From Pseudomonadota bacterium (lineage in GTDB: Bacteria; Desulfobacterota; Desulfobulbia; Desulfobulbales; JAGXFP01), in contig JAHJIQ010000010.1 in the NCBI GenBank assembly GCA_018823285.1, forward strand, positions 15,808 through 79,807: a DNA stretch of 64,000 nt, written 5' to 3'. Positions 31,494 to 61,681 of this stretch are shown piece by piece (position 1 is the stretch's first letter; every line of letters starts with the position of its first letter). Under the pieces are notes generated by a model, which saw only the letters and a program-made list of their open reading frames with translations, was not told the origin of the DNA and made no database searches. Made by a program: the position numbers and the translations under genes.

Positions 31494-31846
31494 AAATTGA
31501 CCGAGGTAGACAAGTTTGAGTGTTAGTAAGTTACTAATAAATATCGAAGATCATATGTTGCATGTTCCCAGACAGTTACCTCTTTTTAGCCATATTTTCA
31601 CTCTGATAAAAGTATCAATTTGTTGAGGTTAAATTTAAAACTTAATGAAATAGAAAACTTCTTATATGCCATGGTGATTTAGCACAAAATGCTAGGTCAA
31701 AGTCAATTTGAAGGTTAGGATGTTTGGGAGAATTGTGTCTTAGAGAAAAGGCATGATAATTTGGTTGTTTCAGTACTTAGAAGAAGCAAGCTGGTATTGA
31801 AGCTCATTTGATTAAGGTCTTGTGTAGAATTATAAATGGGGTGATC

Positions 31847-36304: not shown

Positions 36305-36611
36305 TTTATCATTATGGAGTGCTAGAGATTATAAGGGTTGTACAAGAATTGGAAGAAGGCCTTCTTTGATATTAGAACAGAATAATTGTGTGGTGATGTA
36401 CACAACCCGATTCTTCCGCTTGCCTATCTTTTTCACAGACTTTGACCAACAGTCCGTCGCAAATTTAATATGGAAATAATTATAACAAACACGCATTGTC
36501 GGTTAGATTGAGTTCGTTTATTTGAGATGGAAGGGGGAATGTGATTTCAGGAACTGCCCCTGTGCCCTTTGCAACAGAGATACGGTGTTGAATCATGAAA
36601 CAACCAACCAG

Positions 36612-39600
36612 ATGACATCCAAAGACTTAAACCATAAGGGTGCCAAGCCCTTCGAACAGTCGGCGGTGTTTACCATTACAAGGATCGGCTCGCAAATCGA
36701 AGTTTGTGATAACCTCCTTTCACGCTTAAGTGACCTGGAAGAACGAAAGTCCGAACTCGTCTATGGGGAGAGACGTCTTTCCGACAAAGCGCGAGAAATT
36801 GATGAACAGCATTTGAGTCAAATTGAAGAAGCGTCCGATGCAGTTTCACTGGCACAGGGCACCCTGTTCAGGGCTGAGGCGGATGCGAAACAGTTACAAC
36901 TCCTTCGTGAACAACAGCAGCAGCGATTTGAGGGACTGAAGTCGGGTCAGTTGTCCCCGGAAGATATCGACCATGTAAAGATTGCTGTTGAGGAAAAGTC
37001 AAAACCGGTAAAGACAGCAATTAGCGATCTTGATAGTCGAATTTTAGAAGCTCAAGGACAAATCGAAAATATTGCTGGAACTATTCAGGCCCAAAAAGCG
37101 GAATTGATTAGTTTTCGGGAAGATCTGGAAACTTTCGAAAATGGAGATATCCCTGCACGGTATTTGGAGACGATCGAAGTAGTCAGGAGAAAGTCTGCCG
37201 ATGACCAAGATAGAGAAATTAAGTTAGCAAGCGACAGGCTGAAAGATCTGACCAATCAGATCGACAAGGCAGGAAATGAAATAAAGATATTGAGTCCAAA
37301 AATTGATGAACTGAAAGCAAGTAGCCTTGAACTGGAAAATGTCTCAAAACAGAACCTTTTAAACAAATTCGGGTCATCTGCCTGGAGAGGGTCCTTCTTT
37401 ACCAACTACGAAAAAGAGATTCAAGAACTAACAAACAAGAAGAACCTTCTGGTGAAACAAAGGTCAAATTCTAAGTCCAAGCTAACGAGAATTAAAAAAA
37501 ATCATACCTCGATCATTACAGGTCGTCCTCAATTTATAGAAGAAGCTGTTCTCGCCGAACGAACAAACCAACTCAGCATTTGTCAGGATATGGTCGATGC
37601 CATCCCTATAACGATCCGCGAAGGCAAGGGGGAATTAGCATCAATTAAAACAGGTTTGAGATCGCTGGAAGATCAGCTTGAAATAAAACGTCAGGAACTC
37701 AAGCTAGTTACGGAGCTGGCCGTAGAGACCGCTAAGAATGAACTTGTTGAAATGGTCAAGGCCAGTCTGGATGAGCTAAGCTTAGCGATAGTGGCCGCTG
37801 GAAAAAACATCGCCATTGCCAACAACCAAAGGACTGAGGCAAATGAAACCCTTGAGCAACTTCGCACCAGATTGTCGGAAGAAAAATCTAAACAACTGCT
37901 GAACATAGCTGAACCCCTTGATGAATTAAACAAGGCGATCCCTATTGATGAAGAACAGCTCATTAATGATGCGAAAGAACATGGTATCGAAGGATCAGTA
38001 ATAAATATCCGAGAAGCAATTGTTGCGATGCGCTCTGGCTTAGTTTGTGAGCGACAACGGGAACAAGAAAGTCTGACCTTGAGTGAAGATAGTGAAATCG
38101 ACAACGCAACCAGTGATGAACCTAGTCTCTTGGATGTTAGTCAGGAAAGCGAGTCTTCAACTGAAGAAAAGAGCTCCCAGGTCAATGGCAATATCTATCT
38201 GGATTTTGCAAAGAACGAGGATGATAATCAGACCCCCCATGGCAAGACTTATCCGGGGTTGCGCTCACAATTAGAGGGATTACGCCGTGCACATGGCAAA
38301 GTACTCTTCCAGGATGCGCCACCCGGGGCAGATCTTCTGTCCATATTTATTGAGACCGTCTTCCCCGAAGGGATCTCACAGTCATATTTCATTTGTAATT
38401 TGAGCCTGCGTGCTGATCAGCCTTATCTCCAGATTCGACCCAAAATGATAGGTCCGCGACTAGAGCGGCAGTTGCCACGGGGAATTTCGTTGGCAGTATC
38501 TGGGAAGCTTTGGGATAATCAAAGAGATGCGGACAACCCTGTGTTTCTTGTCCAAAAAATCGTTGACTTGTCTCATTCTGCAAAACTTCCGTTCGAACAA
38601 TCAATTTCAGGCTTCGTGTTCACCCAATCTCAGAGTGTGTACCCGTCTTCTAAACGACAAGAAAACATTTTATCTAATGACTTCGTCGCCCAACTCCCAT
38701 TGATATCGGTTGTAACAAAAGAGCGACTTCAGGGTTGGCGAGATTATCTGGATTGGAGAGAGAGGCTCGTTAGTTCACGTCTTGTCGGTCTTCGGTACCT
38801 TGACATCGAGGTGTTGTCTGACGGTCGTATCCGTTTCTTGACAGTTTGTGAGTCAAAAGAAAACTTCGACCAGGTGCGCCGAACGCTTAGCAGTAATGAG
38901 TTGCAAGCCTATGGTCTCAACTACTCACAGGACCCCTGGGAGTTTGAATACGACGACAAGCAACGACCACGCAGGGCCGAATTGGGAGATTTCGCAGGTC
39001 AGGATGAGCTAATCAGTCCGGGCGATGTTGATATAGACGGAATGCCTTGGGAGACGCCATATTTTGTATATGTAGACTTTCGGCTTCCCGAAGAATCCCA
39101 GAATGAGTTTGATCGTATCATCAACGGCGGAGGAACTGTTGAAGAAGCGGCGCAACGGTATTTGAGCCGTGTAGATTCTTCAGGGTTTCTCGCGCTATCG
39201 GTTGTTGGTGATATGATACTGATAAAACGTCAACGAAGTGAATTGCAGCAACTTCAGGAACAATCCGGACACGCCCCCTTTCTCTCCTCTTATCTGTTCG
39301 ACATCAAGGCTGCGAGTGAGCCGTCGAAACTAAAGGAGATAAACGATAACGATTGGCGTCAGACCAGTCTCAATGATGAACAAAGGCTTGCTGTCAAAAA
39401 AATGGTCAGTACTCCTGATCTTGCAATGGTTCAAGGACCACCAGGCACCGGCAAGACGACGATGATCGCAGAGGCCACCTGGCAGTTTATTCGAGACGGC
39501 AAGAAGGTTCTTCTCGTTTCACAGGCTAGTTTGGCTGTCAACAATGTACTAGAGAGATTGGCACAGGTCCCTGCCATCCGCGCGATTCGACTGAGTCGAA

Positions 39601-42128
39601 AGGAGAGAAACAACGAACGTGAGCATCCTTACAACCAAGCGAACGCGATTGGAACATACTATCGAAGTATCGCAGAGGCATGTCAGTGCCGTACTCTTGA
39701 CGTGTGGTCCAGCGCTGACGAGCGATTGGAGGCGGTATCCAAATGGATCAAATCTGTGGATTTAGTTTCTGGCGACATGGATTCTTTGCGTTCGAAGTCA
39801 GACTCCCTGACGAATCAACGTGCAGTTTGCAAGAAAGAGTTGAAACGACTTAAGGAGTCGGATGAGCGTGCCCGAGACATCGATCAGCAAAAACGAGAGG
39901 TCATGGCGCTAAGGTCATTCATCGAAGGTGCCGCCTCTTTTGCAGGGACTATTCCCGAGCCATTGCTGCGGGTAATTTACGACCGAATTGTTTTGCCCCT
40001 GGATCGTCTTTCCGAAATCGGCATAAGAGCTAATGTCCTGTGGTCTGAGTATGATTATGGCTCACTTTCAGAGCGAACACGATTTGCGGTAGAAGCATTG
40101 CTGAACTGGCGTAAAGTAGCCGCATTCAAGTCACAGATAAATGGTGACCGTGATCGACTCCAAGCGACTGAAGGGGATTCTGTGCTCTCTTCTGAATCGG
40201 CAATACGTCTGGCGGAATTACAGCGTAAGCTTCAAGACACGCTCAAGGCAATGGAAGAAGATGACAGCAAGGTGTTCGAATATCAGGCTATCCAGAAAGA
40301 AATCCGAGAAGTAAAACGTAAAGGTTCTGGACTGGATATGGACATCTATGTTTGCCTGTTTAACGCGCCAGACAATAAATCACTTTCCATCTTGACCAAT
40401 GCAGGAAGTATGCGAACCCAGGTTGTTGAAACGCTTGATGCAGCATATGCATTACTTATGGAGATAGAGGCTGAGATCGAGGATGGTTGCAGGGAGGTCT
40501 GCTCAGAGCTTGGTCGATTCATTGATTCGCTTGCTTCAACCGAGGTCGACAAAGATGAAATGCGGCGATTGGAGGGGCAGCTCCGCCATCTGACGGAACG
40601 CCAGAAGGAGTTGTCTTCAGACCTTTTCGCCAAGGAAAAAAGGCTTAGCGATATTCTTTCCGAGCGTTCGGAAAATTTATCTGGTGTGAAACTAGATAAT
40701 GGTGAACTCCAATCCTTACGTGCGATGGCAGAACGGGATCGAGACTCGTTAGCCGAAAGTCTGAAGCAGAGTCGTTCATTCCGAGATTCTTGGGGAGATG
40801 TTCTCCAGCGATGGGTATCCGACCTGACGGATCCTGAAACAGTCAAGTGCGATCAAGATAACTTCCTTCCTACTTACATCAATGCGTGCAACGTGGTTGG
40901 TGTGACTTGCACAGAAAGAAGAAACACTCTCGAAGATGCTGGCCATACATGGTTCGACGCGGTTATCGTCGATGAGGTGAGTAAGGCAACTCCGACTGAA
41001 ATTATTATGCCGTTGATGATGGGCAGGACGGCCATCCTGGTGGGTGACCATCGGCAACTGCCGCCACTTTTCAAGGAGCAAGAAGGGTCCTGGGAAGAAG
41101 CAATCGCTGATCAAGAGGAGTCGAACGAAGAAGACCAGAACTCCGACAGCGAATTGACGGCCGAAAACTTCGATCGTTTCAAGAAGATGGTGACGTCGTC
41201 CCTTTTCAAGGAGCACTTCGAAAATGCTCCGGATAGCCTTAAGTCGTTCCTCTTTACTCAGTACCGAATGCATCCGCAGATTATGCGGGTCGTGAACCAG
41301 TTCTATGAAAACAGACTTATATGTGGGCTGTCGGACCCCGACGGGAAGAACCCAGATTCCGACCCACGAGGACATCGTGTTCATGGCCTCACATTGCAGG
41401 GTGAAAAAGACCAACGGTATATCGTACCTGAGCAGCATGTGGCATGGATTGATTCAACTCTCGACCCCCACGGAAAACGTCACTATGAGAGTAGTAAGCT
41501 CGGTAGCAGCAAGGTCAACGAACTTGAATGGATCTTAATTGCCAAGTCTCTGTTCGACATTGAAATGGCTTGTCGGGATAAGGGGTTCGGAGCGAATGAC
41601 AAACCACCCAAGCAGGTAGGGATAGTTACATTTTACAATGGCCAAAAAAACGCCATCAAGAGAGCAGTAAAACGTATTGAAAGTGTTCGCAAAACCCGGT
41701 TCTCAGCTATCGATTGGGATGTTAACACCGTGGATAGATATCAAGGGCAAGAGCGGCCTATCATTCTGGTGAGCATGGTAAGGAGCCCGCCTTTTAAGTT
41801 GTCTCAAAGGGCAAACACAGCTCAGTTTGAAAGGATTAATGTCGCCTTCTCCCGGGCAGAAGAGTTGCTGGTAGTTGTGGGAGCTAAGGACGTCTTCTGC
41901 AAATATCCTGTTTTCCTGCCACATTTAGACAAACCAGGCAAACGCAAGGTTGAGGTCTATCGGTTTATAATAGATGAGATCCAACGAAGTGGTGGCCTTT
42001 GGTCCTCCGACTATATTATCTCCTCGCATGAATACGACAGGCTTCTTCCCGCCGGATTCTCGCCGAAAAGATCAAATGGCCGTCCAAATCAAAATAACAA
42101 TCGTCACCGAGGGAGAATTAGTAAATGA
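36612..42128 (+). CDS. giant coiled-coil Upf1/DNA2-like SF1 helicase (AAA_11/AAA_12 type)
   Basis: Motif I MVQGPPGTGKTTMIAE (about 39434), motif II AVIVDEVSKATPTE (about 40971), then LVGDHRQLPP, FTQYRMHPQI and TVDRYQGQERPIILVSMVRS. The N-terminus is a coiled coil of about 530 aa. The first ATG is at 36612; the ORF-track start at 36522 is a TTG with no Shine-Dalgarno sequence. Confidence 0.85.
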   Translation: MTSKDLNHKGAKPFEQSAVFTITRIGSQIEVCDNLLSRLSDLEERKSELVYGERRLSDKAREIDEQHLSQIEEASDAVSLAQGTLFRAEADAKQLQLLREQQQQRFEGLKSGQLSPEDIDHVKIAVEEKSKPVKTAISDLDSRILEAQGQIENIAGTIQAQKAELISFREDLETFENGDIPARYLETIEVVRRKSADDQDREIKLASDRLKDLTNQIDKAGNEIKILSPKIDELKASSLELENVSKQNLLNKFGSSAWRGSFFTNYEKEIQELTNKKNLLVKQRSNSKSKLTRIKKNHTSIITGRPQFIEEAVLAERTNQLSICQDMVDAIPITIREGKGELASIKTGLRSLEDQLEIKRQELKLVTELAVETAKNELVEMVKASLDELSLAIVAAGKNIAIANNQRTEANETLEQLRTRLSEEKSKQLLNIAEPLDELNKAIPIDEEQLINDAKEHGIEGSVINIREAIVAMRSGLVCERQREQESLTLSEDSEIDNATSDEPSLLDVSQESESSTEEKSSQVNGNIYLDFAKNEDDNQTPHGKTYPGLRSQLEGLRRAHGKVLFQDAPPGADLLSIFIETVFPEGISQSYFICNLSLRADQPYLQIRPKMIGPRLERQLPRGISLAVSGKLWDNQRDADNPVFLVQKIVDLSHSAKLPFEQSISGFVFTQSQSVYPSSKRQENILSNDFVAQLPLISVVTKERLQGWRDYLDWRERLVSSRLVGLRYLDIEVLSDGRIRFLTVCESKENFDQVRRTLSSNELQAYGLNYSQDPWEFEYDDKQRPRRAELGDFAGQDELISPGDVDIDGMPWETPYFVYVDFRLPEESQNEFDRIINGGGTVEEAAQRYLSRVDSSGFLALSVVGDMILIKRQRSELQQLQEQSGHAPFLSSYLFDIKAASEPSKLKEINDNDWRQTSLNDEQRLAVKKMVSTPDLAMVQGPPGTGKTTMIAEATWQFIRDGKKVLLVSQASLAVNNVLERLAQVPAIRAIRLSRKERNNEREHPYNQANAIGTYYRSIAEACQCRTLDVWSSADERLEAVSKWIKSVDLVSGDMDSLRSKSDSLTNQRAVCKKELKRLKESDERARDIDQQKREVMALRSFIEGAASFAGTIPEPLLRVIYDRIVLPLDRLSEIGIRANVLWSEYDYGSLSERTRFAVEALLNWRKVAAFKSQINGDRDRLQATEGDSVLSSESAIRLAELQRKLQDTLKAMEEDDSKVFEYQAIQKEIREVKRKGSGLDMDIYVCLFNAPDNKSLSILTNAGSMRTQVVETLDAAYALLMEIEAEIEDGCREVCSELGRFIDSLASTEVDKDEMRRLEGQLRHLTERQKELSSDLFAKEKRLSDILSERSENLSGVKLDNGELQSLRAMAERDRDSLAESLKQSRSFRDSWGDVLQRWVSDLTDPETVKCDQDNFLPTYINACNVVGVTCTERRNTLEDAGHTWFDAVIVDEVSKATPTEIIMPLMMGRTAILVGDHRQLPPLFKEQEGSWEEAIADQEESNEEDQNSDSELTAENFDRFKKMVTSSLFKEHFENAPDSLKSFLFTQYRMHPQIMRVVNQFYENRLICGLSDPDGKNPDSDPRGHRVHGLTLQGEKDQRYIVPEQHVAWIDSTLDPHGKRHYESSKLGSSKVNELEWILIAKSLFDIEMACRDKGFGANDKPPKQVGIVTFYNGQKNAIKRAVKRIESVRKTRFSAIDWDVNTVDRYQGQERPIILVSMVRSPPFKLSQRANTAQFERINVAFSRAEELLVVVGAKDVFCKYPVFLPHLDKPGKRKVEVYRFIIDEIQRSGGLWSSDYIISSHEYDRLLPAGFSPKRSNGRPNQNNNRHRGRISK

Positions 42129-44587
42129 AATTGACTGATATCCGCATCGGTGTACCAATGCTTCGGATAGAAACGCGTGTCTTTCACGCGACTCCTCGCA
42201 AACCGACTGCATTTGAGCGAGTCATTCTTGCCGTGGCCGATAGGTTCGGAGTTGACGCCAACTTCAACAATCTCCCTCTAGATCGTCTTTTTATTGATGT
42301 CCTCTGCGTAGTTGACCCTACGCCGATAGTGACGCCCACACTCACTGAACTCATTACCCTGGATGTTATACGTTGCTTGAGTGATGTCGAATCACTGAAC
42401 ACTTTGACCTTACGCGACATAGAGATTACTGAGCGTGGACATCGTATGATTGCGGAAGATATGCTGCCAGCCAAGGCGATGCAGAACGATGAGGTGTTCT
42501 TTTATGATCCAATCCTTCAACGACTACTTCCTGAATCTCAATCCAAGGCTTATCGTCCAGTTCCTCCCCAGTTGTCAGTTGATGTTACAGTTTTTGAGGA
42601 TGTATTTCCAGAAGACCAGATTCGCTCGAAGATTCAGGGTGGAGGTTATCGTTGGTTTAGTGCCGCAAGCCAGATTGAAAAGCTTGAATCCCAGGCGGTT
42701 CAGATCTATTGGAAAGACACTCCCAGCTCGGTCGAGTTGAAATCTGGGGAATTGGTCATTGATTCCATAGATGAAGGCCTTAGTTCCTATATCAGTTCGC
42801 TTGATTGTGAAAAAGCCTATGATCGCTTCATTGCACCGGTATTTGATAATCATGATTTACAATTAGAGCTATTCCCGGAAATTGCTGTCGACAACCTTAA
42901 TTGGGAAAATTTCCATATCCTGCCGGTTCAGCGTGTGTTGTTCAATTGGCCAGAGAGTGCGCGAGTTGTTATTACCAATTTAAATCATGCTGATCCCTCA
43001 ACCCCGGATCAAGCGCTGCCACAACAGGCCATCATCATCTACCACGATGACAAAGATGCAGATGATATCCATTTTGAATGGAATGAGAATCGAAACGGCT
43101 GCAAGCTGAGAGTAAAGGCACCGGCTCCTGACCCAAGTTTCCTGCGTCTAACGGATCAACATGAAGTCCGTTGCCATCGTATTCAAGCGACGCACGGAGG
43201 CATTGAGCGTCAGTTCCTTGTAGCGTATCAAGGTCGGATCAGCAGTGACGATGAATTGATAAGCAATCCTCTTCGGTCTCTTTCAAGTATCTTTAACCAA
43301 AAAGTAAGTCAAGAGGATCTCTGTGCTGCTGTACTTTGGGAAGGCGAATCCCTGTATATGGAGAATCTTCTTCGGCGACTAGCGACGTCTAACTCTCTAC
43401 TGGATGATCTTGTTCCAGCGTTCTATTCAGGGTTAGCCGACACAGAACGAGTTAATGGCACAATCAACCGTAATGCCTGGGATGAAACACTGTTCAATTT
43501 ACTCTGCGAGTGTATCAATTCTTCTGAGGACTTCGAGTTGTCCGCCAATGAAGGCCTCCTTCATGTCCTGTCGAATTACGGTCCTTATTCCGAAAAGCAC
43601 CAATCACTTCTACTTCAGACACTTATCCAAAAAGTTCCGCTACCACTCAATCTCGATGAATTGAAAGCAATATGGGCTTCATTTCGCCTTCTATATCCTG
43701 GATGGACCTCCAACTTTCCTTCCCGGTTGCTGACTCAGGAGATATTAAAGTCGATACTTGAAAGCTTTCCGAAAAAACTAGACGATGATCTTTTGACAGA
43801 AGATAATGGTTTCTTTCGTCTAATCTCATCGTTGCATCAACTCTACGAAAAAATTTCTAAAGTGGTCGGAGGCGAAGGTATTGAAGGGCTTGTCGGTGAC
43901 GATGATTACGTTGCATTAATCAAGGCCCAGCCACAAGCCGGATTGGCCGACTTGGCTCATTCCTGGGTGACAGAAATGGAGTCTTTGTCTTCAGCGCTAA
44001 TGGACTACGATTCAATTTTACTTGGGACTCGTTTGGAGTTGATTCATAGCAAAGTTACAGAAATTGGCAGGTGGTCTGCCAAACTTATCGGAGCACTCGC
44101 TAAAAATGTTCAATCAGTCTATGTGTTTGATACGTCAGCTCTTATAGCTCAACCGAGCATTGTCGCAAGTGTTTGCCCTAATGAATTGTTTGTTGTTACC
44201 AAGCGGGTTATTGATGAACTGGACGACAAGAAACTTGATGAGACTCTTCGCCCGAGTGTGTCCGAGGTTGTGCGTAATCTACGCAGGATAAAGAAAGAGC
44301 AGATTCAGTTTTGCGATGGAGAGATGTCGCTTCTCCCTAAGGATTACCGTATGAAAGGTGACAACCTGATTCTGTCGGTCGCAGTCCGCTTTCGCACACA
44401 TAAGCCAACCTTGATTACTAATGACAACAACCTCTCCCTGAAGGCACAAGCTGAAGGCATTGCGGCAATGACGGCAGGAGAGTTTGAGATGAGAATAAAG
44501 CCTAAGACGCAACACAATGATCAGTTGCATCGCGGCCGCCCTCAAAATCCCAAGGGAAATCCCGAGGGGAAAAGGAGTAAAAAATGA
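42125..44587 (+). CDS. large protein with C-terminal PIN-domain nuclease
   Basis: 820 aa. The C-terminus reads VYVFDTSALIAQ...VVTKRVIDELDDKK...DNLILSVAV...TLITNDNNLSLKAQAEGIAAMT, matching the PIN_4/PhoH-associated PIN pattern. The tail is basic. ATGA overlaps on both sides. Confidence 0.7.
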   Translation: MKLTDIRIGVPMLRIETRVFHATPRKPTAFERVILAVADRFGVDANFNNLPLDRLFIDVLCVVDPTPIVTPTLTELITLDVIRCLSDVESLNTLTLRDIEITERGHRMIAEDMLPAKAMQNDEVFFYDPILQRLLPESQSKAYRPVPPQLSVDVTVFEDVFPEDQIRSKIQGGGYRWFSAASQIEKLESQAVQIYWKDTPSSVELKSGELVIDSIDEGLSSYISSLDCEKAYDRFIAPVFDNHDLQLELFPEIAVDNLNWENFHILPVQRVLFNWPESARVVITNLNHADPSTPDQALPQQAIIIYHDDKDADDIHFEWNENRNGCKLRVKAPAPDPSFLRLTDQHEVRCHRIQATHGGIERQFLVAYQGRISSDDELISNPLRSLSSIFNQKVSQEDLCAAVLWEGESLYMENLLRRLATSNSLLDDLVPAFYSGLADTERVNGTINRNAWDETLFNLLCECINSSEDFELSANEGLLHVLSNYGPYSEKHQSLLLQTLIQKVPLPLNLDELKAIWASFRLLYPGWTSNFPSRLLTQEILKSILESFPKKLDDDLLTEDNGFFRLISSLHQLYEKISKVVGGEGIEGLVGDDDYVALIKAQPQAGLADLAHSWVTEMESLSSALMDYDSILLGTRLELIHSKVTEIGRWSAKLIGALAKNVQSVYVFDTSALIAQPSIVASVCPNELFVVTKRVIDELDDKKLDETLRPSVSEVVRNLRRIKKEQIQFCDGEMSLLPKDYRMKGDNLILSVAVRFRTHKPTLITNDNNLSLKAQAEGIAAMTAGEFEMRIKPKTQHNDQLHRGRPQNPKGNPEGKRSKK

Positions 44588-45732
44588 GCGAGTCTGTCCA
44601 CTATCGATGGAATCTTAAAGCACAGATGCGTCGCCAGGCATATCTGGATCGCATTCAGGGTAATGTAGCGAAGTTCCATGACAGGTATAACGCGAAATTT
44701 GAAGATTTGGTCAATCAAGGTCTTGAACAATATTTGCCTAGTGACTTTGCCGATTTTCGTACTCAATTGGCTCGACTTGAAAGACTTCTTTCATCCGACC
44801 CGGAGAGCGCTCGTGAATTGAGCTTCGAAATAGGCAGCCAACTCAGTCACTTACCTGGATTGGCAAGGGCTGCCAAGCGAGAGTTCGAGTCTCGTGAGAT
44901 CCAGAGACGTAAAGAGATAGCTGAAATGCGGCGTCATGCCAGTAGCGAACTTGCTCAATTCATTCAAAACATGATTGCCGAGATAAACGACCCTATTGAA
45001 TTGGATTTTGCCTATGAGCAAGTCAGGGCAGTTCAATCAGATTACCAGGGGCGCATTGTAGATGCAGGTGAGTTGTCAGAGATCAAGGCGAACATTCAAT
45101 CCCGCTTTGCAGAAATACGTAAAGCATCACAATCAAAGGCTGTAATTTGGAAGAAGGAAAAGTCCAAGGAGAATTCCAGAGAGGCGACGGAGTCTTTGGT
45201 GGCTCTCTACACAGAGCATGCGACGGCAGATGCCAGCAATAATCCTAAGGCACTCTGTGCTATGTTGGAAAGTCTGGAATCAGTACGGCGACAAATCAAT
45301 GGATCATCATCCCTTGAGGACATCAAGAGCAAAATCGCCGAAGCGACGAAGGCCGTCGATACTGCCGTTGCAGATGAAGACTGTCGTCGCATGGTCGTTC
45401 GCTCAATTATGGATTCATTGGAGAAATCCGGATTCATGGTTTCGAAACCAAAAAGGAGCGACGGTGATGTTGATGAAGTTGTCATACTCGCTCGCAAGCC
45501 TGCAGGGGCTGAGGCTGCTTTCCGAGTTACGGCCGACGGCAGTATGATTTACAAATTCGACCACTATGAAGGAATGCAATGTAAGGACGACATAGACAAG
45601 GTTCTTCCTCTTCTAAAGGATATTTACGGGGTCGATTTATCTGAGGAAAGGGTCTTGTGGCAAAACCCTGTTAAGATTTCAAAATCTTCCAAGCCAATGG
45701 ATGAGGATAAAACGGAGAGTTACCATGGTTAA
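44584..45732 (+). CDS. hypothetical helical protein, partner of the ClpB-like ATPase
   Basis: 382-aa ORF, translationally coupled on both sides. Mostly helical. No motif recognised. Confidence 0.5.
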   Translation: MSESVHYRWNLKAQMRRQAYLDRIQGNVAKFHDRYNAKFEDLVNQGLEQYLPSDFADFRTQLARLERLLSSDPESARELSFEIGSQLSHLPGLARAAKREFESREIQRRKEIAEMRRHASSELAQFIQNMIAEINDPIELDFAYEQVRAVQSDYQGRIVDAGELSEIKANIQSRFAEIRKASQSKAVIWKKEKSKENSREATESLVALYTEHATADASNNPKALCAMLESLESVRRQINGSSSLEDIKSKIAEATKAVDTAVADEDCRRMVVRSIMDSLEKSGFMVSKPKRSDGDVDEVVILARKPAGAEAAFRVTADGSMIYKFDHYEGMQCKDDIDKVLPLLKDIYGVDLSEERVLWQNPVKISKSSKPMDEDKTESYHG

Positions 45733-47593
45733 TGATAGTGAGAACAACTGGTTAGTTAACCTGAATCGACAGGCTGGCATCCGTCGGGCGGTCATCCTGC
45801 ATGGGGATGTTCTGGACGTCTGCTACGACATCGCCAGTTCAACATATCGGCCCATTCTTGATGTTGTGTTGCGCACATTGAAAGATCGTGGATTTCACCA
45901 TGTGGTTGTGTGGGATCGGTTCTCAGGCGTTGAGAATATCGCTAGCGACGTGTGGAAATCGATGGTTCAAGAAGCTACGTTTGGTTCATCTTCACAGGAA
46001 GATGATTCTGATCATGATTATGATGTCGGGCCACGTGACATCCCGACGGATGCAAGCGCTGGTATAATCCCTCAGAATACTGACGATTTTCTGGCTGTCC
46101 TTTACCATCACATGTTGCGGCCAAAAAAAGAGCGGGTAGTATTTGTTCTGGACTGGACGCAATACCTTTTTGGTAATGCTAATGCACTATCGGAACAAGA
46201 GCGGCAATGGTTGCTTATCATCTCAAAGGCAATTCGCAACGCTCCCGTACCGACCGACGATGTAGAAAGCCTGAAGAGTCCTTCAAATTTGGTCGTTTTG
46301 CTGTGTCAAAGGCTGGGCGCTATCCCTCCATCTCTCTACCAGGCGAATCCATCTATTCAAGAAATAGTAGTTCCTTCACCTAGTCGGATAGAGCGGGAAC
46401 ATTTTCTTAAGCGCAGCATCGACAAATGGGCGCTCCGCGCAATGCCAAACCCTGGTGAGTTGGCATTCAGCGATTTTGTTGATGCCTTGGAGGGTATGTC
46501 TCTACGCGATCTTCAACAACTTGTACGTCTTTCTCGACAGGTTCCTGGTGACCCACTCACGTTTGATCGTCTTATTAACCTGTACCGCTATGGTGAGCAA
46601 AAAAGTCCTTGGGAGGATCTTAGTAGATCAAAGTTGGCGACAATCCGCGACACTCTCAAGAAACGGGTCAAAGGGCAGGATGAATCTGTCGACAAGGTGT
46701 CTAGAGCCATTATCAGGGCGTTTACGGGCCTCTCCGGACTTCAGCACTCCAAGAAACAGAGAATGCCGAAGGGGACATTGTTTTTTGTGGGGCCCACCGG
46801 AGTAGGTAAGACGGAATTAGCCAAGTCACTTGCACAGTTCTTGTTTGGTGACGAGGACGCATGTATCCGTTTTGATATGTCCGAGTTCAACCACGAACAC
46901 AGCGATCAACGTCTCGTTGGAGCGCCTCCTGGTTATGTTGGTTACGAGGAAGGCGGCCAACTCACCAATGCAGTCATAAAGCGGCCATTTTCGGTTTTGC
47001 TGTTTGACGAAATTGAGAAGGCTCATGTCCGGATTCTCGATAAGTTTCTCCAAATCCTTGAAGATGGAAGGTTGACTGATGGGAAGGGCGAGACTGTTCA
47101 TTTCTCGGAAACCGTCATTATCTTCACATCAAATATCGGTGCGTCTGAGGTCGAGCTTCAGGATGATCAAGAAGCTGTGCGTCAGCAGTTTATGGAGAAG
47201 GTCAAGGAGCACTTTGTCAAAGTAGCTAAGCGTCCAGAACTGCTGAGTCGACTGGGTGACAATATCGTCCCGTTTAATTTCATTATCGGAGACGATTTTC
47301 TTGTCTCTATCGCTCGGGCGAAATTACAGCCTCTGCGGGATCGGCTAAAAGAGAAATATCGCATTACTGACCTAGCTTTTGACGATGAAGATAAGGCCCT
47401 CTTGGCACTCTCAAACAGTGTGGACCGCCAAAAGGGCGGGCGTGGCGTATTAATCGAGATTGTGAAAAGGATAATTGACCCACTGGCCGATTTTTTGTTT
47501 ATGGAGGAGGATGATCCGACACACTATGCAGGACGCAGCATTGTTGTTCATCAGGCAGGTGCCGAGGCTACCTTTGTTTTTGAGGTGAGGTAG
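45725..47593 (+). CDS. ClpA/ClpB D2-type AAA+ ATPase with degenerate N-terminal half
   Basis: LFFVGPTGVGKTELAKSLAQFLFG...RFDMSEF...LVGAPPGYVGYEEGGQLT...FSVLLFDEIEKAH...ILEDGRLTD is the classic Clp D2 (AAA_2) module. The N-terminal half has no Walker A. ATG 45725 is 5 nt after GGAGAG (45714-45719); the ORF-track start is 45701. Confidence 0.8.
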   Translation: MVNDSENNWLVNLNRQAGIRRAVILHGDVLDVCYDIASSTYRPILDVVLRTLKDRGFHHVVVWDRFSGVENIASDVWKSMVQEATFGSSSQEDDSDHDYDVGPRDIPTDASAGIIPQNTDDFLAVLYHHMLRPKKERVVFVLDWTQYLFGNANALSEQERQWLLIISKAIRNAPVPTDDVESLKSPSNLVVLLCQRLGAIPPSLYQANPSIQEIVVPSPSRIEREHFLKRSIDKWALRAMPNPGELAFSDFVDALEGMSLRDLQQLVRLSRQVPGDPLTFDRLINLYRYGEQKSPWEDLSRSKLATIRDTLKKRVKGQDESVDKVSRAIIRAFTGLSGLQHSKKQRMPKGTLFFVGPTGVGKTELAKSLAQFLFGDEDACIRFDMSEFNHEHSDQRLVGAPPGYVGYEEGGQLTNAVIKRPFSVLLFDEIEKAHVRILDKFLQILEDGRLTDGKGETVHFSETVIIFTSNIGASEVELQDDQEAVRQQFMEKVKEHFVKVAKRPELLSRLGDNIVPFNFIIGDDFLVSIARAKLQPLRDRLKEKYRITDLAFDDEDKALLALSNSVDRQKGGRGVLIEIVKRIIDPLADFLFMEEDDPTHYAGRSIVVHQAGAEATFVFEVR

Positions 47594-47595
47594 TT

Positions 47596-48195
47596 ATGGC
47601 TCGGTTGAATCTTGCGGACTGGGTTGATTGCACAGAGGTTGAAGGACCTGGAAAGCGTCTGGCACTGTGGGTGCAGGGCTGTTTGCTGAGATGCCCGGAA
47701 TGTTGCAACGCTCATATGCTTGAGATCGTTCCACGCAATGTTGTTGGTACTGATGTTGTTTTGGAGTGGATCAATGATGCGAAGAATTTGCACTCCATTG
47801 AAGGTGTTACTTTTCTTGGTGGCGAGCCGATGTTACAGGCTAGAGGTTTGTCTGAAATTGCGCGCGGATGCCAAGATATTGAGCTATCTGTTATGACTTT
47901 TACAGGATATCCCCTCGACGATCTCAATCAGAACCCAATGCCAGGAGTTTCAGATCTACTTATTCACACTGACATTTTAGTTGATGGCCCTTTTGTATTG
48001 GAAAATCCTGAGCGGACAAGAAACTGGGCTGGATCAATAAATCAGCAATTCCACTTTCTTTCTGAGCGCTACAAAGCTGGCATCGAGTTCGATCCTGCTT
48101 ATAGCCGCGGGTTTGAACTGCGAATATTTGATGATGGCAGAGTACGGACGAATGGATGGCCTTTGGGGAGTATCAATAGGGTCTGGACACGCTAA
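47596..48195 (+). CDS. NrdG-like radical-SAM activase (anaerobic RNR activating protein family), orphan
   Basis: VEGPGKRLALWVQGCLLRCPECCN contains a CX3CX2C triad at 47680-47703. Also present: GVTFLGGEPMLQ and DILVDGPF...WAGSINQQ. GAGGTGAGG Shine-Dalgarno sequence. Last gene of the operon. Confidence 0.8.
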   Translation: MARLNLADWVDCTEVEGPGKRLALWVQGCLLRCPECCNAHMLEIVPRNVVGTDVVLEWINDAKNLHSIEGVTFLGGEPMLQARGLSEIARGCQDIELSVMTFTGYPLDDLNQNPMPGVSDLLIHTDILVDGPFVLENPERTRNWAGSINQQFHFLSERYKAGIEFDPAYSRGFELRIFDDGRVRTNGWPLGSINRVWTR

Positions 48196-48998
48196 CTATC
48201 TGAAATCATTTCTAATCATTGTTTGTAGTAGACCTTTCTGGAGCTTGTATTGACGTTTTTAAGGCCAAAAGACTCAAATATATAGAGTTTATAACGCATG
48301 GTTTGTTGATTTGCGTTGAATATTGGCCCCCAAACAACGCCCAAGGTGACCCCTCTGTGAAAACAAATACCTGCCTTTTTAATGTCCTTAGCCTCCACCC
48401 CGAATAGATTCTAGAGTGAAAAAGATCTTTCGCATAAATCGGAACAAGATAATATTTCGACGCGGAAATCGGTCAATGTTGGAAGTTGATCGACAAGCTG
48501 ACTTTAGTCTGGGATACCACGTATTAGAGTCAGCTATACAGTACAGTTAAAATGATACGCATATGGCTACTGCGAAAAAGTAATTCTATTAACTGCATTT
48601 TTGAGTAGTGGGCTCTCCCTTTTTTTTCGTTCTACCTCGGCATTCATACAAAGCTCTTTCAAACTAGCAAGTATTGTGATCTGTGCAAGTAGATCTGATG
48701 GATTTATTGGTTTGTATCTACGTGGTTTGTAGGGTTTTTCCTACAAAGAAAATTCTTGTTAGAAAAATTAAATCATGTTCTTTTACTCAACTGTGATGGC
48801 AGGTCCTGTTAGCTTGTCACTCAATAAGACTGGGGGGAGTCTTTCATTTCTGGAGTATTCCTGGTCTAAATCATATTTGCTCGTGTTGTGTTTTGTTGAT
48901 CGAGGGGCTGTTCTTTTGCCAGTTATCAAGCTGAATGAGTGAAATGTTTTTTCCCCACTTTGTGCATTTGTGCTTTTATGCATTATTAGGAGTTCTAT

Positions 48999-49802
48999 AT
49001 GAAGAAAGCAATTTTTTCACTGCTGGTTCTGGCAACCTTTCTCCTGCTGCAGTCTGTGTCTTTTGCAGTGCCCAATATCATTACCTATCAGGGCAAACTT
49101 AATGACCAGAACGGCGTGCCGCTGACCGGCAGTTATTCGATCACCTTCACAATCTATGATGATCCGGTGGCTGGCACAGCCCGGTGGACTGAGACTTGGG
49201 ATATTGGAACCAGCCAGGTTACTGTGACCGATGGGTTGTTTCAGGTTGAGCTGGGGTCTCATGTTCCGCTTGTTTCAACCATATTCGACAAAGATGGCCT
49301 TTATCTTGGAATCAAGGTTGAATTTGATGCGGAGATGATGCCGCGGCAGAAGTTTACAAGTGGATCTTTCGCGTTTAGAGCAGAACCACTAGTTCCAACA
49401 TTAAAGAATGTTGTTAATTTGAACAGCTATTCTGCTCCATCAGGATGCGATTGGCATATAGTGCATACATTTTCTGTGCCTCAGGGAGAAATTTGGGAAG
49501 TTAGTAACATGTGGGCAATGCGTTATACTGTCGGTAAGTATGGTCGAAGAATTGATGCAATCAGAATGGTTGTTGAGGGAGTTGTCCACGACACGACTGA
49601 TTCTTATTTGAGTGTAAAGAATGATGATCTTTCATATTTTTCAAACGTAAATTCTATTTACAGTCCCCCATTACAAATATTGCCTGGAAAGACTGTAGTA
49701 ATTGAAGGATATTTTGCAGCGAATAGATCTGGTTCAATCTGTGATGGGAGTACTATTGGTATTAATAATGTTGGATATTATTACCAAGTTAAAAGTTTTT
49801 AA
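48999..49802 (+). CDS. secreted protein with the shared ~100-aa N-domain (paralog family A) and a unique C-domain
   Basis: AGGAG (48988-48992) lies 6 nt before the ATG. Signal peptide MKKAIFSLLVLATFLLLQSVSFA. N-domain: VPNIITYQGKLNDQNGVPL...FTIYD...LFQVELG...LYLGIKV...MPRQKF. The same domain occurs in three other genes here. Confidence 0.6.
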   Translation: MKKAIFSLLVLATFLLLQSVSFAVPNIITYQGKLNDQNGVPLTGSYSITFTIYDDPVAGTARWTETWDIGTSQVTVTDGLFQVELGSHVPLVSTIFDKDGLYLGIKVEFDAEMMPRQKFTSGSFAFRAEPLVPTLKNVVNLNSYSAPSGCDWHIVHTFSVPQGEIWEVSNMWAMRYTVGKYGRRIDAIRMVVEGVVHDTTDSYLSVKNDDLSYFSNVNSIYSPPLQILPGKTVVIEGYFAANRSGSICDGSTIGINNVGYYYQVKSF

Positions 49803-49831: not shown

Positions 49832-50203
49832 ATGAGATCCGGGATTGCCATTATACTTACTGCTTGTTTGTTGCTTGGGTCATCTTTTGTCAAGGCTGAT
49901 GCTTTGCGTACATATAGAGGTTTTTTATTTTCCCAGAGCGGCCAACCTGTTAATTCCACTGTAAGTATGACATTCCGAATCTATGATGTGTCTGTGGGTG
50001 GCACTCCCATATGGAATGTTACAAAAAACATCCAGATTTTGGACGGCATGTTTGAAGTGCAGCTGGGAGACAAACAACCCCTTAATGATTCTATTTTTGA
50101 GAATGATGAACTTTATATCGGTATCCAAGTGGGTATAGATGATGAAATGACCCCTCGCAAGCAGATGAGCAGCGAGGGGTATGTTTTTAAGACGAAATAT
50201 TAG
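49832..50203 (+). CDS. secreted protein consisting only of the shared N-domain
   Basis: 123 aa. Signal peptide, then YRGFLFSQSGQPVNSTVSMTFRIYDVSVGGTPIW...MFEVQLG...LYIGIQV...TPRKQM. Confidence 0.5.
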   Translation: MRSGIAIILTACLLLGSSFVKADALRTYRGFLFSQSGQPVNSTVSMTFRIYDVSVGGTPIWNVTKNIQILDGMFEVQLGDKQPLNDSIFENDELYIGIQVGIDDEMTPRKQMSSEGYVFKTKY

Positions 50204-50222
50204 TGATAATACATTTGGGCAA

Positions 50223-53200
50223 ATGAAGTTTATCTCCGGCATAATTACTTTACTCTTGGTGACTGCTTGTTTGTCGGCGGATGTCGCTGCCATGGAAAGC
50301 GCCAACTTCAAGATGCCGGTGTTCTCATCCAACCATGGCGGCGGAGCGGCCGGTTCCAGCCAGTACCAGTTGTCAAAAAGTGTTATCCCCCGCCAGCCGG
50401 TAGGTCTTTCAACCAGCGCCAATTTTCAGGTGCAGGCCGAGGTGCTGGATCATGGACTTTCAACCGCACCTTCCTGCGGGGTCTTCATCAGCCAGGATAA
50501 TGTTGCGGCCAATGATCCGGCCGTCAGCCTCGATCTGATCTGTAGCGATCCGGATGGCTGTGAAGAGGTCTCTATTTCCAACAACGGTTTCAATTGGCCG
50601 GTCACCCAGCCTTTCACCACTACTACCAGCTGGACTCTTTCTCCTGGAGATGGCGAGAAGAAGGTCTTCGTAAAGTACAAGGATACTACTGGCGAATGGT
50701 CCGGAATCTGCGGCGATTCAATTAATCTGGACACTAGGGCTCCGACCGCTTCGGCTACCCTGCAGGGCGATACTTTCATAGGTACCCAGAACGTCTCTCT
50801 TGTTGCCAGTGAGCCGGCCACAATTTATTACACAATCGACGGAAGTGAACCGACTACAGCCTCAACCTTATATACAACCCCGCTCGACCTGACTGTAAAT
50901 ACCACTCTCAAATTCTTTGCTGTAGACCTGGCCGGAAACAACGGTCCGGTTGCCACCGAGGATTACACGATCTGCACAGGCACCGGCCTGTCAATTACAG
51001 GCGCGGTTAGAGATGCCCTGCTCAACCAGAATGTTCCCCTGGCGGTGATCAACCTGAAAACCGGCCAGCAGACAGTCAGCAATCCTTCCGGCAATTACTC
51101 CTTCACTGGTCTGGCTGCCGGCTATTATTCAATCGACTCGGTCAGCATCACCGCCCCCGGCTATGTCACCTATCAGAAGGAACTCACTCTCTGCCAGGCC
51201 AATATTGTTAACGACATCAGCCTGACCAAGGACACTACTGTTCTTGGTACCGGTAGCAGTTCCGGTTACAGCGGCGATAACGTCAATACCTCCACCGGCA
51301 ACTATGCCTATAACCGGTCCGATCTGGCGATTCCTGGTCGCGGCATTCCCTTTGCCTTTGACCGTACCTATAACTCCCAGGATGGTTCCGACGGACCTCT
51401 TGGTTTTGGCTGGACCCATAATTACAACATCTCCCTCACTGAAGAAGCAGGCGGCGAGGTCTCCATCCGCTGGGGTGAGGGCCGGACCGAGACCTGGATT
51501 CCGGATGGTGGTGGCGGCTACATCCCGATGTACGGGGTTTTCTCGATTCTGACCAAGAACCTGGATACCAGCTTCAATCTTCGTCTCAAGGATATGACTG
51601 AATACAACTTCGATCCTACCGGACTTTTGACTTCCATCGCTGACGAGTACTCAAATACCATCTCTTTCTCTTACTCTTCCGGAAACCTTGCATCGGTAAC
51701 CGATACTGTTGGTCGCATTATTAATTTCACCAGTGATGTTAATGGACGGATAACCAGCATCACCGATCCGATCAACCGATCGGCCACTTTCTCTTACGAT
51801 GTTAACGGCAATCTGGTTTCAGCCACAGACCTGGACGGCAATGCCACCACCTTCACCTACGACATTTACCATCGGATTCTGACCGTGGTTGATCCCCTCG
51901 GTAACATTGTTCTTACCAACACCTATGACGACCAGAAGAATGTCATTGCCGCTCAGAAGGGTGCTCTTGGTGGCGAAACTCTCTACTCCTATGATGTGGA
52001 ACAACGTCGAACTCAGATCATCGATCGCCTGGGCAACATCTCATATCATTATTACGATGATCTTCTACGGTTAATCTGCGAAGTCGATGCACTTGGCTAT
52101 TCAGCTCATTACGAATTTGATGAAAGAGGTAACCTGATCAGTGTTACCGACAAGAACGGTAATATTACCAACTATGCCCATGACGCAAACGGCAATGTTC
52201 TGACCAAGACCGAACCGTTGGGACGGGTGACTTCCGCTACATACGATGCGGATAACAACCCGTTGACCAGGACCGATGCCAACACCAACACGACCACCTT
52301 CACCTACGATGGTCAGGGTAGCCTGCTGACTGTCACCGATGCCCTGAATAATGTTACGACCTATACCTATGATGCTTATGGGCAAATGGAGACAGTGACC
52401 GATGATCTGAGCAACGTCACCACCAATTATTACGATATTTATGGTAACCGGGTCTCGGTGGTTGATGCGTTAACCAACACCCATACCTACACTTATGACG
52501 TGGTGGGGAGAAAGATCTCTGAATCTCATCCACTTGGGCGGGGTACTCTTTTCACATACGATAATCTGGATCGGCTGGTTTCGGTCACTGATGCTCTGGG
52601 AGGGGGAAGTCTTTTCACTTACGATGCCAACGGCAACAAGACCGAGCATCTCGATGCCAATGGCAACAAGACTACTTTTGCCTACGATGCCAGGGATCGG
52701 CTGATCAGCAAGACCACCCCGATGAACGAGACCGAGACTTATGTCTACGATCTGCTTGATCGGCGGATCGCAGTGACCAGCCCGCTCGGTTCGGTTACCT
52801 CCCTGGTCTACGACAAGATCGGGAACGTCAACCAGACCCTTGATGCCATGGGCAATGTCTCCCGTAGCGAGTACGACGCCAACGGCAACAAGCTTAAAAC
52901 TACCGACCCCATGGGCAATGAAACACTCTTTGTTTATAACGCCCTTAATTGGCTGCTCTCCACCACCGATGCCCTGGGCAACACTACTTCATTCACCTAT
53001 GATAGTAATGGTAACCGTCTGACCGTTACTGACGCCCGGAGCAAGACCCTCACCTCGACCTATGATGTTCTGAACCGGTTGTTGACCGTTGCCGATCCGC
53101 TTAATAACGTCACCACCAATACTTACGATGACCTGGGGCGGTTGTTAACCGTCACCGATGCCCGCAATAACACCACCAGTTTTACCTATGACGAAATAGG

Positions 53201-55445: not shown

Positions 55446-55495
55446 TCAAAAAACAAGAGGTTTGATTTTATAACTTCAGACATACAGGACTAGTG

Positions 55496-56278
55496 ATGAA
55501 AAGAGCATTTGTAGCATTAATGACTTTGGCGATGGTTTTGATGCTGACGGTAACCGCCGGGGCAGTTCCCAACCTGATCAGCTATCAAGGTATCCTGAAT
55601 GATGGTGGTGGTAACCCGATCAGTTCGACGGTCAGCATCACCTTCAAGATCTATGATGTCCCGTCCGGCGGCACCGAACTCTGGGGTGAGACCCAATCGG
55701 TTCAGGCATCAAACGGTATTTTCAATGTCCAGCTTGGTTCTATCCATCCTCTGGCTTCATCAGTGTTTCAGACTGATACCCTTTACCTCGGAATCCAGGT
55801 CGGAGCTGATCCTGAAATGGTACCAAGGCAGCAATTAATGACCGGAGGATATTCCCAAAAAGCGGCCTTAGTCGAGGAAACTATTTCTCCAATAGGTGCT
55901 GTAATGGCTTGGATGAAATCTATGCCGGGAGTGCCATCCTTGCCAGAAGGATGGGTGGAATGTGGTGGTCAAACTTTGGTCGATGTTGATAGTCCATTAA
56001 ATGGGCAGGTTATTCCTGATTTGAACGGTCAAAATAGATTTTTAAGAGGTGCTGTGGGAAGTGGGTTGTCGGGAGGGGCGACTTCTCATGGCCATAATAT
56101 TGGGCATGTAAACACCCAGTTTATGGGTGCGGGCAATGTCGCTAATGCAAACAAAACTGACGCGGCTGTGTATATTTCTGCGGGATATTATGGTGGCGGG
56201 ATTGGAGATTTTACAAACCGTTCAGCATCTCATTTACCTTCATATTATGAAGTCGTCTGGATTATGAAAGTTAAATAA
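55496..56278 (+). CDS. secreted protein: shared N-domain plus phage tail-collar-like C-domain
   Basis: AGGA (55486-55489) precedes ATG 55496. Signal peptide MKRAFVALMTLAMVLMLTVTAGA. N-domain: VPNLISYQGILND... The C-domain, PEGWVECGGQTL...VIPDLNGQNRFLRGA...GGATSHGH, resembles the tail Collar domain pattern P.GW..CdGq...PDLrGr...H.H. Confidence 0.65.
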   Translation: MKRAFVALMTLAMVLMLTVTAGAVPNLISYQGILNDGGGNPISSTVSITFKIYDVPSGGTELWGETQSVQASNGIFNVQLGSIHPLASSVFQTDTLYLGIQVGADPEMVPRQQLMTGGYSQKAALVEETISPIGAVMAWMKSMPGVPSLPEGWVECGGQTLVDVDSPLNGQVIPDLNGQNRFLRGAVGSGLSGGATSHGHNIGHVNTQFMGAGNVANANKTDAAVYISAGYYGGGIGDFTNRSASHLPSYYEVVWIMKVK

Positions 56279-61642: not shown

Positions 61643-61681
61643 ATAATGTTAATTAAGAACCTAAAACAAAAAGGTTTAAGC

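Follow-up and report, generated by a model that had tools for sequence, protein, structure and literature searches.

We analysed a 64,000-nucleotide stretch of contig JAHJIQ010000010.1 (positions 15,808 to 79,807; hereafter the window) from the Desulfobulbales assembly GCA_018823285.1, with a focus on a gene at 47596..48195 (+) whose translated open reading frame (ORF) encodes a 199-aa NrdG-like radical S-adenosylmethionine (SAM) protein, hereafter referred to as rSAM. The gene is the last of five that overlap or nearly abut in the order helicase, PIN nuclease, U382 (a 382-aa coiled-coil protein), ClpB-like protein and rSAM. Sequence and neighbourhood comparisons established that rSAM keeps all its catalytic motifs, is co-inherited and translationally coupled with an AAA+ motor and U382, and resides in mobile defence-type loci. 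It is very probably a dedicated component of this cassette and not a housekeeping NrdG. With about even confidence, we further propose that rSAM is a subunit of a mobile five-gene conflict cassette, likely directed against phages or plasmids, which couples protein-directed radical chemistry to an unfoldase. Glycyl-radical activases classically serve a small number of enzymes of anaerobic metabolism; the present branch has left that metabolic role and is wired, throughout, to protein-unfolding AAA+ motors in conflict or defence cassettes.

An earlier note on this DNA had quoted a set of activase motifs for the 199-aa protein, and each was found where it had been placed. These comprise VEGPGKR (residues 15-21; 47638..47658, +), which in alignments is the counterpart of the glycine-rich activase 'loop A'; GCLLRCPECCN, which holds the CX3CX2C motif of the [4Fe-4S]/SAM cluster (C29/C33/C36, followed by a clade-specific C37; 47680..47703, +); GVTFLGGEP, which ends in the invariant radical SAM 'GGE' SAM-binding motif (GGEP, residues 75-78; 47818..47829, +); and DILVDGPF...GSINQ. 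In the loop, E16, G17, P18, G19 and R21 were invariant among 31 family members, as were C29, C33, C36 and G75-G76-E77 across the family, and these catalytic motifs and the activase loop stay invariant despite about 50% sequence divergence. The extra Cys37 is likewise invariant and is not a feature of NrdG. We then compared the protein with family models and found matches to Pfam Fer4_12 (6e-29) and Radical_SAM, while the best NCBIfam model was NrdG (TIGR02491, 2e-23), followed by PflA, NrdG2, YjjW and other activases. As judged by these models, the protein is NrdG-like yet no NrdG equivalog, because it reached 83 bits on TIGR02491, under the curated cut-off of 126.1; on PRK11121 it scored 54 against a cut-off of 199. 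The QueE model TIGR03963 gave 9e-4 (19 bits vs a cut-off of 260) and the PADLOC pVip model 4e-4. When the PDB was searched with the family profile, the sole solved relative by sequence was the activating enzyme of pyruvate formate-lyase (PFL), PFL-AE (1.8e-14). VEGPGKR aligns with loop A of that enzyme (VDGPGIR), which closes over the PFL peptide when this is bound (PMC10267522).

A neighbour-joining tree was built with E. coli NrdG, PflA and QueE and the bona fide 155-aa NrdG of locus L046 as references. All fetched relatives of rSAM formed one clade, closest to NrdG, and E. coli QueE was the most distant reference; the placement among NrdG, PflA and QueE that had been proposed as a check thus gave the rSAM relatives a clade of their own. 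Members of this clade share a C-terminal extension of ~45 aa (residues ~152-199, FHFL..RY..GIE....GFELR...DG....NGWP; 48049..48192, +), which was found in all five of the clade's genomic context groups, including plasmid relatives of 30-40% identity, and was missing at that position from E. coli NrdG, the L046 NrdG and PflA. Matches of T4-like phage NrdG to rSAM likewise end at residue ~150. At the level of sequence, descent of rSAM from the glycyl-radical-activase branch, with NrdG as the nearest relative, is well established. Two apparent variants of the protein were rejected: the N-terminal extensions or 'fusions' in Anaeromyxobacter and delta-proteobacterial loci are high-GC ORF artefacts, and the P0214/P0204 'fusion' of ClpB-like and rSAM genes on a 29,836-nt metagenome contig is a frameshift or read-through in a degraded cassette copy.

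Relatives of rSAM were widespread, with 439 at the cluster level (E <= 1e-5) and occurrence in at least 565 of 185,579 GTDB species genomes. We fetched 86 loci, 83 of them distinct, called their ORFs and used the five proteins of the window as queries against them. The ClpB-like gene was present directly before rSAM in 52 of the 83 loci, U382 was found in 46, and all five genes occurred in the window order in 35, with 11 more cut by a contig end. In the window, the ClpB-like stop codon (TAG, 47591-47593) and the rSAM ATG at 47596 are separated by 2 nt, and a Shine-Dalgarno-like GAGGTGAGG for rSAM sits within the upstream gene; across all 51 co-directional pairs, the distance from the ClpB-like stop to the rSAM start was -4 to +19 nt (median 3). 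Both the translational linkage to the ClpB-like gene and the functional tie to ClpB-like, PIN and helicase genes, which the earlier note had proposed, were therefore borne out by these counts, and close homologues proved overwhelmingly linked to the same genes. The hosts include Beta-, Gamma- and Alphaproteobacteria, Paenibacillus (Bacillota), Clostridia, Negativicutes, Planctomycetota, Synergistota, Cloacimonadota, Fibrobacter and Spirochaetes. Several loci depart from the five-gene order: L005 holds U382, ClpB-like and rSAM genes without a full helicase and PIN gene, L009, L011, L012 and L013 hold this core triad followed by a vWA, PP2C, kinase and helicase set, and in L017 the operon is split and rSAM keeps U382. 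The minimal conserved module is U382, the ClpB-like protein and rSAM, and the helicase/PIN pair is exchangeable. In Thermoguttaceae (L011, 10631-17552; also L009, L012 and L013), the set behind U382-ClpB-rSAM begins with a vWA protein and a 176-aa protein, continues with a PP2C phosphatase and a Ser/Thr kinase and ends with an Upf1-like helicase, and this TerY-P-like triad with its helicase replaces the upstream helicase/PIN pair. No generally conserved gene was found downstream of the cassette across loci, and a search of 5,426 complete E. coli genomes with the Moellerella cassette DNA gave no match.

The AAA+ partner (gene 4; 45701..47593, +) is a 630-aa tandem protein, for which an ATG at 45725 is another possible start. 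It matched Pfam AAA_2 (7.3e-52) and ClpB_D2-small, and the NCBIfam ClpB model (1.8e-84) over the D2 part only and below its cut-off. Residues ~305-600 form a ClpB-D2-type domain with a Walker A motif (GPTGVGKTE), a pore loop (GAPPGYVGYEEGG) and a Walker B motif (LLFDEIEKA); because all three are invariant in 48 sequences, the C-terminal half should thread polypeptides. Residues ~12-300 correspond to a degenerate AAA+ domain without Walker A. No sequence similarity was detected for the N-terminal 300 residues by hidden Markov model (HMM) and HHalign comparisons, including to the protein's own C-terminal domain. The AlphaFold2 (AF2) model of this domain (predicted local distance difference test score (pLDDT) 79, predicted template modelling score 0.76) gave 360 Foldseek matches in the PDB at E <= 1e-3, and the best 50 were all classical AAA+ proteins, such as FtsHi/Ycf2 (best, 3.7e-6), Rpt subunits, Vps4, p97 and TRIP13.

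U382 (gene 3; 44584..45732, +), the other constant member, is always a neighbour of the ClpB-like and rSAM genes; in the window it overlaps gene 2 by 4 nt. Its AF2 model (mean pLDDT 82.9) consists of long helices and coiled coil (residues 3-281), followed by an alpha/beta C-domain (~283-362) with a four-stranded sheet and a helix. No fold match was found in the PDB at E <= 1e-3, where only weak AdoMetDC-, spermine-synthase-N- and RnlA-like alpha/beta similarities appeared, and no Pfam, NCBIfam or PADLOC family was assigned. The C-domain was found in 364 clusters (HMMER, 1.84 billion representatives), nearly all of proteins of ~380 aa with the domain at the C-terminus, and has ~16 invariant residues. 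Within it, residues ~309-345 (45508..45618, +) resemble DUF2997 by HHalign: a strand-turn-strand, the loop F325-D-H-Y328-E-G330-M-Q-C333 and a helix, with G330 encoded at 45571-45573 and C333 at 45580-45582. F325, Y328, G330 and C333 were invariant in sets of 29 and 47 sequences. Compared with the DUF2997 proteins of related cassettes from Actinomycetota and Bacillus, this segment gave a probability of 64% and E = 6.4e-5 (controls, E 0.07-0.45), and the core common to both is G-x-x-C. Two proteins of the related cassettes described below, namely fvmX5 of the FtsH type and the 141-aa protein of the Actinomycetota/Bacillus type, were linked at a probability of 41% and E = 2.7e-4. After a rough Bonferroni correction for the roughly 30 comparisons, both links still stand, as leads and not as proofs. 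When 29 members of the U382 family were scanned against Pfam at E <= 10, they returned coiled-coil noise only and no DUF2997, and HMM and HHalign comparisons of U382 with fvmX5 and fvmX6 gave no significant signal.

The first two genes encode the exchangeable arm. Gene 1 (36522..42128, +) encodes an 1868-aa Upf1/MkoA-like superfamily 1 helicase, identified by Pfam (AAA_11, 1.9e-30; AAA_12, 1.1e-34), NCBIfam (IGHMBP2-family helicase, 5.7e-48) and the PADLOC MkoA profile (3e-95 and 2.7e-80). Its helicase core spans residues ~950-1800, after an unassigned N-terminal region of ~940 aa, and its start, taken as the first possible codon (TTG), is uncertain. Gene 2 (42125..44587, +), which overlaps gene 1 by 4 nt, encodes a protein of 820 aa in which a PIN_4 nuclease domain occupies the C-terminal residues 666-783 (Pfam, 2.5e-15), and plasmid copies are labelled 'PIN domain-containing protein' in RefSeq.

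Besides the setting behind a ClpB-like gene (ClpB type, G1), the rSAM clade occupies four others (G2-G5). In Planctomycetota (G2), the order is RtcA, rSAM, fvmX6, fvmX5, an FtsH-type AAA+/M41 protease and fvmX7; the fvmX-type Pfam families were defined from FtsH ternary systems, and the rSAM of the FtsH system was predicted to modify a protein or peptide effector (Kaur et al. 2020, PMC7159879). In Anaeromyxobacter and relatives (G3), rSAM is convergent with two genes, one for a zinc-ribbon protein and one for a classical AAA protein of 631 aa. Here rSAM stands alone on the plus strand opposite a double-zinc-ribbon protein (L086, 7617-10175 (-); likewise L053, L061 and L063), the surroundings are housekeeping genes (transketolase, MlaC, NAD synthase, 4-alpha-glucanotransferase), and several 'conserved neighbours' were discarded as high-GC antisense ORF artefacts after genes were re-called via third-codon-position GC content (GC3). 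Cassettes of Actinomycetota and Bacillus plasmids (G4; L092 4564-8257, L097 2842-6579, L099 2908-6576, L100 2980-6603 and L091 11704-15801) encode an AAA ATPase, a 141-aa protein, DUF2997, an HhH protein and an rSAM labelled '4Fe-4S single cluster'; the 141-aa protein has a hydrophobic N-terminal stretch, and its actinobacterial copies a CxxC motif. Finally, a plasmid of Calothrix sp. PCC 6303 (G5; L093, 3433-14954) encodes an Hsp70-family protein, a 1316-aa TPR protein, rSAM, a 494-aa protein and an 848-aa AAA ATPase. Since all five contexts hold an AAA+ or chaperone ATPase, the constant partner of the rSAM clade is a protein-remodelling ATPase.

The defence context suggested earlier was recovered both in the window and on plasmids. 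Upstream of the cassette lies a DISARM-like block (4489-30917) that encodes two SNF2 helicases (949 and 893 aa), an Eco57I/N6-type methylase of 1575 aa, a protein of 2538 aa that has a Sacsin-type HATPase domain, a DEAD helicase of 2129 aa that carries an MZB/DUF1998 domain, and a UvrD-like helicase (713 aa). It is followed, directly upstream of the cassette, by a three-gene ABC-3C conflict system (31808-35579) with a Cap4-type double-stranded DNA nuclease effector, Middle Component 4 (MC4) and an ABC/SMC-like ATPase with DUF3732. Downstream, two large RHS-repeat proteins (RHS toxins) are encoded at 50181-55445 and 56300-61642. The cassette was also found on 10 conjugative and 8 other plasmids (tblastn, PLSDB), where RefSeq gives its genes generic names only. 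In Moellerella plasmids an hsdS remnant, insertion sequences, ArdA, integrases and AbaSI surround it; in Acinetobacter pNDM1_010055 it adjoins DarT and another rSAM module; and in Polaromonas and Photobacterium plasmids it adjoins transposases, toxin-antitoxin genes and a TIR protein. Acinetobacter, Polaromonas and other plasmid-host genera are aerobes. Two of these loci also carry further radical SAM genes. The Acinetobacter cassette, which has DarT upstream, is followed by genes for a 173-aa AAA protein, a radical SAM protein of 328 aa and a 162-aa protein (L090, 14853-16835), and the Photobacterium cassette is preceded by two adjacent radical SAM genes (L096, 5611-7679). In the window itself, each RHS gene is followed by an ORF of ~260-290 aa (55493-56278 and 61646-62527) that matches no Pfam family, an ORF of 267 aa whose N-terminus is hydrophobic occupies 48999-49802, and a 662-aa protein with an FGE-sulfatase domain (formylglycine-generating enzyme-like) is encoded at the left edge of the island (942-2930). 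The gap of ~800 nt behind rSAM (48196-48998) contains no gene and no Rfam match, and neither the operon nor this gap showed anything notable when scanned for Rfam families and terminators.

Activases of this kind normally act on a glycyl-radical enzyme, and we searched for a partner using tblastn with NrdD and PflB of E. coli MG1655 together with regular expressions for the glycyl-radical fingerprint. The earlier note had seen no glycyl-radical enzyme in the 64-kb window, in agreement with which no homologue of NrdD or PflB was found there at E <= 1; a PROSITE-type glycyl-radical signature was likewise absent from the window in any frame, and the PDB structure search gave U382 no match to a glycyl-radical enzyme. 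Within the operon, R[IVT]xG[YWF] occurs in frame just once, as R184-T-N-G187-W188 in the C-terminal extension of rSAM; R184 and W188 are not conserved there, so the match is due to chance. The 'VGYFDE' of fvmX6 was ruled out as a glycyl-radical-like glycine, its Gly being Ser in L048. In 49 of the 52 ClpB-type loci, nrdD was absent from the sequenced flanks (<= 10 kb per side). A bona fide nrdD, with the C-terminal Zn ribbon and RLRRVSGYLS, adjoins the cassette in L046 (10701-12840) and L066 (2460-4139, -), and an nrdD remnant does so in L049 (3638-3865, -); L046 also encodes a separate 155-aa nrdG beside its nrdD. At three of 52 loci, this adjacency clearly exceeds what chance would give, and the three hosts are all gut or rumen anaerobes. 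It may reflect an insertion hotspot or a jointly transferred block, and does not make the cassette rSAM an NrdD activase.

Together, these findings lean towards a protein substrate over nucleotide chemistry, and by analogy with related activases we hold protein-directed chemistry with roughly even confidence. Under this proposal, rSAM would reductively cleave SAM, and the 5'-deoxyadenosyl radical would take a hydrogen from a protein and not from a small molecule, as its relatives do; the ClpB-like motor, with its pore loop intact, would expose or present the target protein. The best candidate site would be the invariant Y328-x-G330-x-x-C333 loop of U382, although we regard its being the rSAM target as a tentative and rather unlikely possibility. 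The radical event could be a glycyl or thiyl-type radical, a cross-link or an O2-dependent backbone cleavage, and it might arm or regulate an RNA-directed helicase/PIN effector arm. The most specific form of this proposal is speculative and, as a whole, improbable: rSAM, aided by the ClpB-like unfoldase, would install a backbone glycyl or thiyl radical or a related modification on G330-x-x-C333 of U382, and this event, or an O2-triggered cleavage, would serve as the immune switch for the helicase/PIN pair. Several observations weigh against the proposal. The four partner proteins contain no in-frame RVxG[FYW]-type motif, as the earlier note had already observed by eye and the regular-expression search bore out, and the ~16 invariant residues of the U382 C-domain are more what one would expect of a domain that binds or catalyses than of one that is passively acted upon. 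The similarity between U382 and DUF2997 is a lead of moderate strength, and was undetected in the FtsH-type cassettes. The RNA-related partners (Upf1-like helicase, PIN, RtcA and HhH) would fit a nucleic-acid substrate too, and many hosts are aerobes, in which a stable glycyl radical would not survive.

The main alternative, which we consider possible but unlikely, is that rSAM performs nucleotide or nucleic-acid chemistry, either as a viperin-like producer of a chain terminator, by QueE-like base chemistry or directly on RNA delivered by the helicase, with the AAA+ protein only a scaffold or regulator. The RNA-oriented partners (the Upf1/MkoA-like helicase and PIN protein, RtcA in the sister clade and HhH in the actinobacterial cassettes), the weak pVip (4e-4) and QueE (9e-4) matches and the missing recognisable glycyl-radical partner all favour it, but similarity ranks NrdG far above PflA, PflA above other activases and these far above QueE and viperin, and the activase-specific loop A, which contacts the peptide in PFL-AE, is invariant. 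Moreover, the core module survives without the helicase and PIN genes, and its constant partner is a protein-threading AAA+ motor. A more doubtful alternative is a regulatory Fe-S/SAM sensor or redox partner, which would report SAM, oxygen or redox state to the AAA+ machine without hydrogen abstraction; in its variants, it would sense SAM depletion by phage SAM lyases or exchange electrons or a cluster with the Cys-bearing DUF2997-like domain. The linkage of cyanobacterial DUF2997 to the ferredoxin Fed7, the single invariant Cys common to U382 and DUF2997 and the many aerobic hosts are consistent with such a role. However, the catalytic motifs, GGE and the substrate-loop motif are invariant at about 50% divergence, which is the pattern of a working enzyme, and to our knowledge a sensor or redox role has no precedent in the activase branch.

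Two further explanations concern the cassette's purpose and the identity of rSAM. The cassette may be real yet serve no anti-phage role, acting as an addiction or stabilisation module, in inter-bacterial conflict or in RNA or protein quality control of mobile elements, which we judge improbable to about the same degree as the most specific U382 mechanism. Such a role would suit the plasmid locations beside transposases, integrases and toxin-antitoxin genes, the RHS toxins downstream in the window and the absence of any PADLOC or NCBIfam model naming the cassette, but it accords less well with the flanking defence systems (the DISARM-like block and ABC-3C in the window; DarT, restriction genes and a TIR protein on plasmids), with the match of the helicase to the Mokosh MkoA profile and with the place of the sister clade in predicted conflict systems. 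Finally, rSAM could be an NrdG with a housekeeping role, displaced from the gene of the class III ribonucleotide reductase that it activates, a concern raised in the earlier note for which no canonical nrdD/nrdG arrangement was found in the clade. NrdG is indeed its best-scoring family and nrdD lies beside the cassette in L046, L066 and L049, but the score below the cut-off, the separate clade, the C-terminal extension and the five-gene synteny across phyla render this explanation very improbable, as do the separate nrdG that L046 keeps by its nrdD, the lack of NrdD in the window and the cassettes on plasmids of aerobes.

Radical SAM enzymes as a family, and their presence inside NTPase-centred conflict systems, are already known. 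In contrast, we found no full-text literature description of the cassette and no model for U382, the PIN protein or this rSAM clade in PADLOC 2.0 and NCBIfam 20.0, nor did we find the window cassette described in Kaur et al. 2020 (eLife, PMC7159879). So far as we found, the five-gene cassette is undescribed, as are the clade-wide AAA+ coupling, the tandem ClpB-like protein and the DUF2997-like partner. Definition of the rSAM substrate would open new radical SAM chemistry, in the form of a new protein radical or modification, and would explain a widespread and unnamed candidate immune system that joins an Upf1 helicase/PIN arm, reminiscent of nonsense-mediated decay, to an unfoldase. It would also offer a functional handle on DUF2997 and on the as yet only predicted rSAM component of the FtsH ternary systems. 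If a radical does form at G330-x-x-C333 of U382, it would represent a new minimal class of radical-bearing protein and the first activase-type protein-radical chemistry in immunity, operating even in aerobic bacteria.

We finally compared the cassette with known systems. Glycyl-radical activases in general share with rSAM the N-terminal loop A pattern [DEN]GxGxR, which in these enzymes binds the substrate's glycine loop, but no cognate glycyl-radical protein was found for rSAM in the window. NrdG is the closest of them, with a CX3CX2C motif, a [DEN]GPGxR loop, GGEP/GGDP, TGY..L.EL, LVDG.F and (R/V)GSxNQ on a core of ~150 aa. It is, however, a compact protein of ~150-160 aa that ends after GSSNQ, whereas rSAM adds the ~45-aa extension, belongs to a separate clade, carries Cys37 and stands in a fixed position behind a ClpB-like AAA+ gene without pairing to nrdD. 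PflA (PDB 3C8F/3CB8/8FO0) aligns with rSAM at loop A, the cluster motif and GGE, but is a 246-aa enzyme with a fuller barrel that acts on the RVSGY loop of PFL, and no PFL-like protein is encoded in the window. Nucleotide-directed radical SAM enzymes of the QueE and viperin type are more distant, rSAM giving no significant match to their family models. Mokosh consists of an MkoA helicase and an MkoB nuclease of the phospholipase D (PLD) type, or of the fused MkoC, and the window cassette likewise pairs a helicase with a nuclease; its nuclease is PIN_4 instead, no PLD domain occurs in any cassette protein, and U382, the ClpB-like protein and rSAM have no Mokosh counterpart. The AAA-DUF2997-HhH cassettes of Actinomycetota and Bacillus are alike in their rSAM clade (30-40% identity, same extension), AAA+ partner and DUF2997, and differ in having a single classical AAA domain, no helicase or PIN gene, a free-standing DUF2997 and an rSAM without Cys37. 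The simpler FtsH ternary (vWA-MoxR-FtsH) systems contribute RtcA, fvmX6, fvmX5, an FtsH-type AAA+/M41 protease and fvmX7, none of which is encoded in the window. Nevertheless, their 'distinctive radical SAM' protein (PMC7159879) belongs to the sister clade, with about 45% identity and the same C-terminal extension, and their AAA+ protein combines an inactive N-terminal with an active C-terminal AAA domain (PMC7159879), as does the ClpB-like protein of the window cassette.

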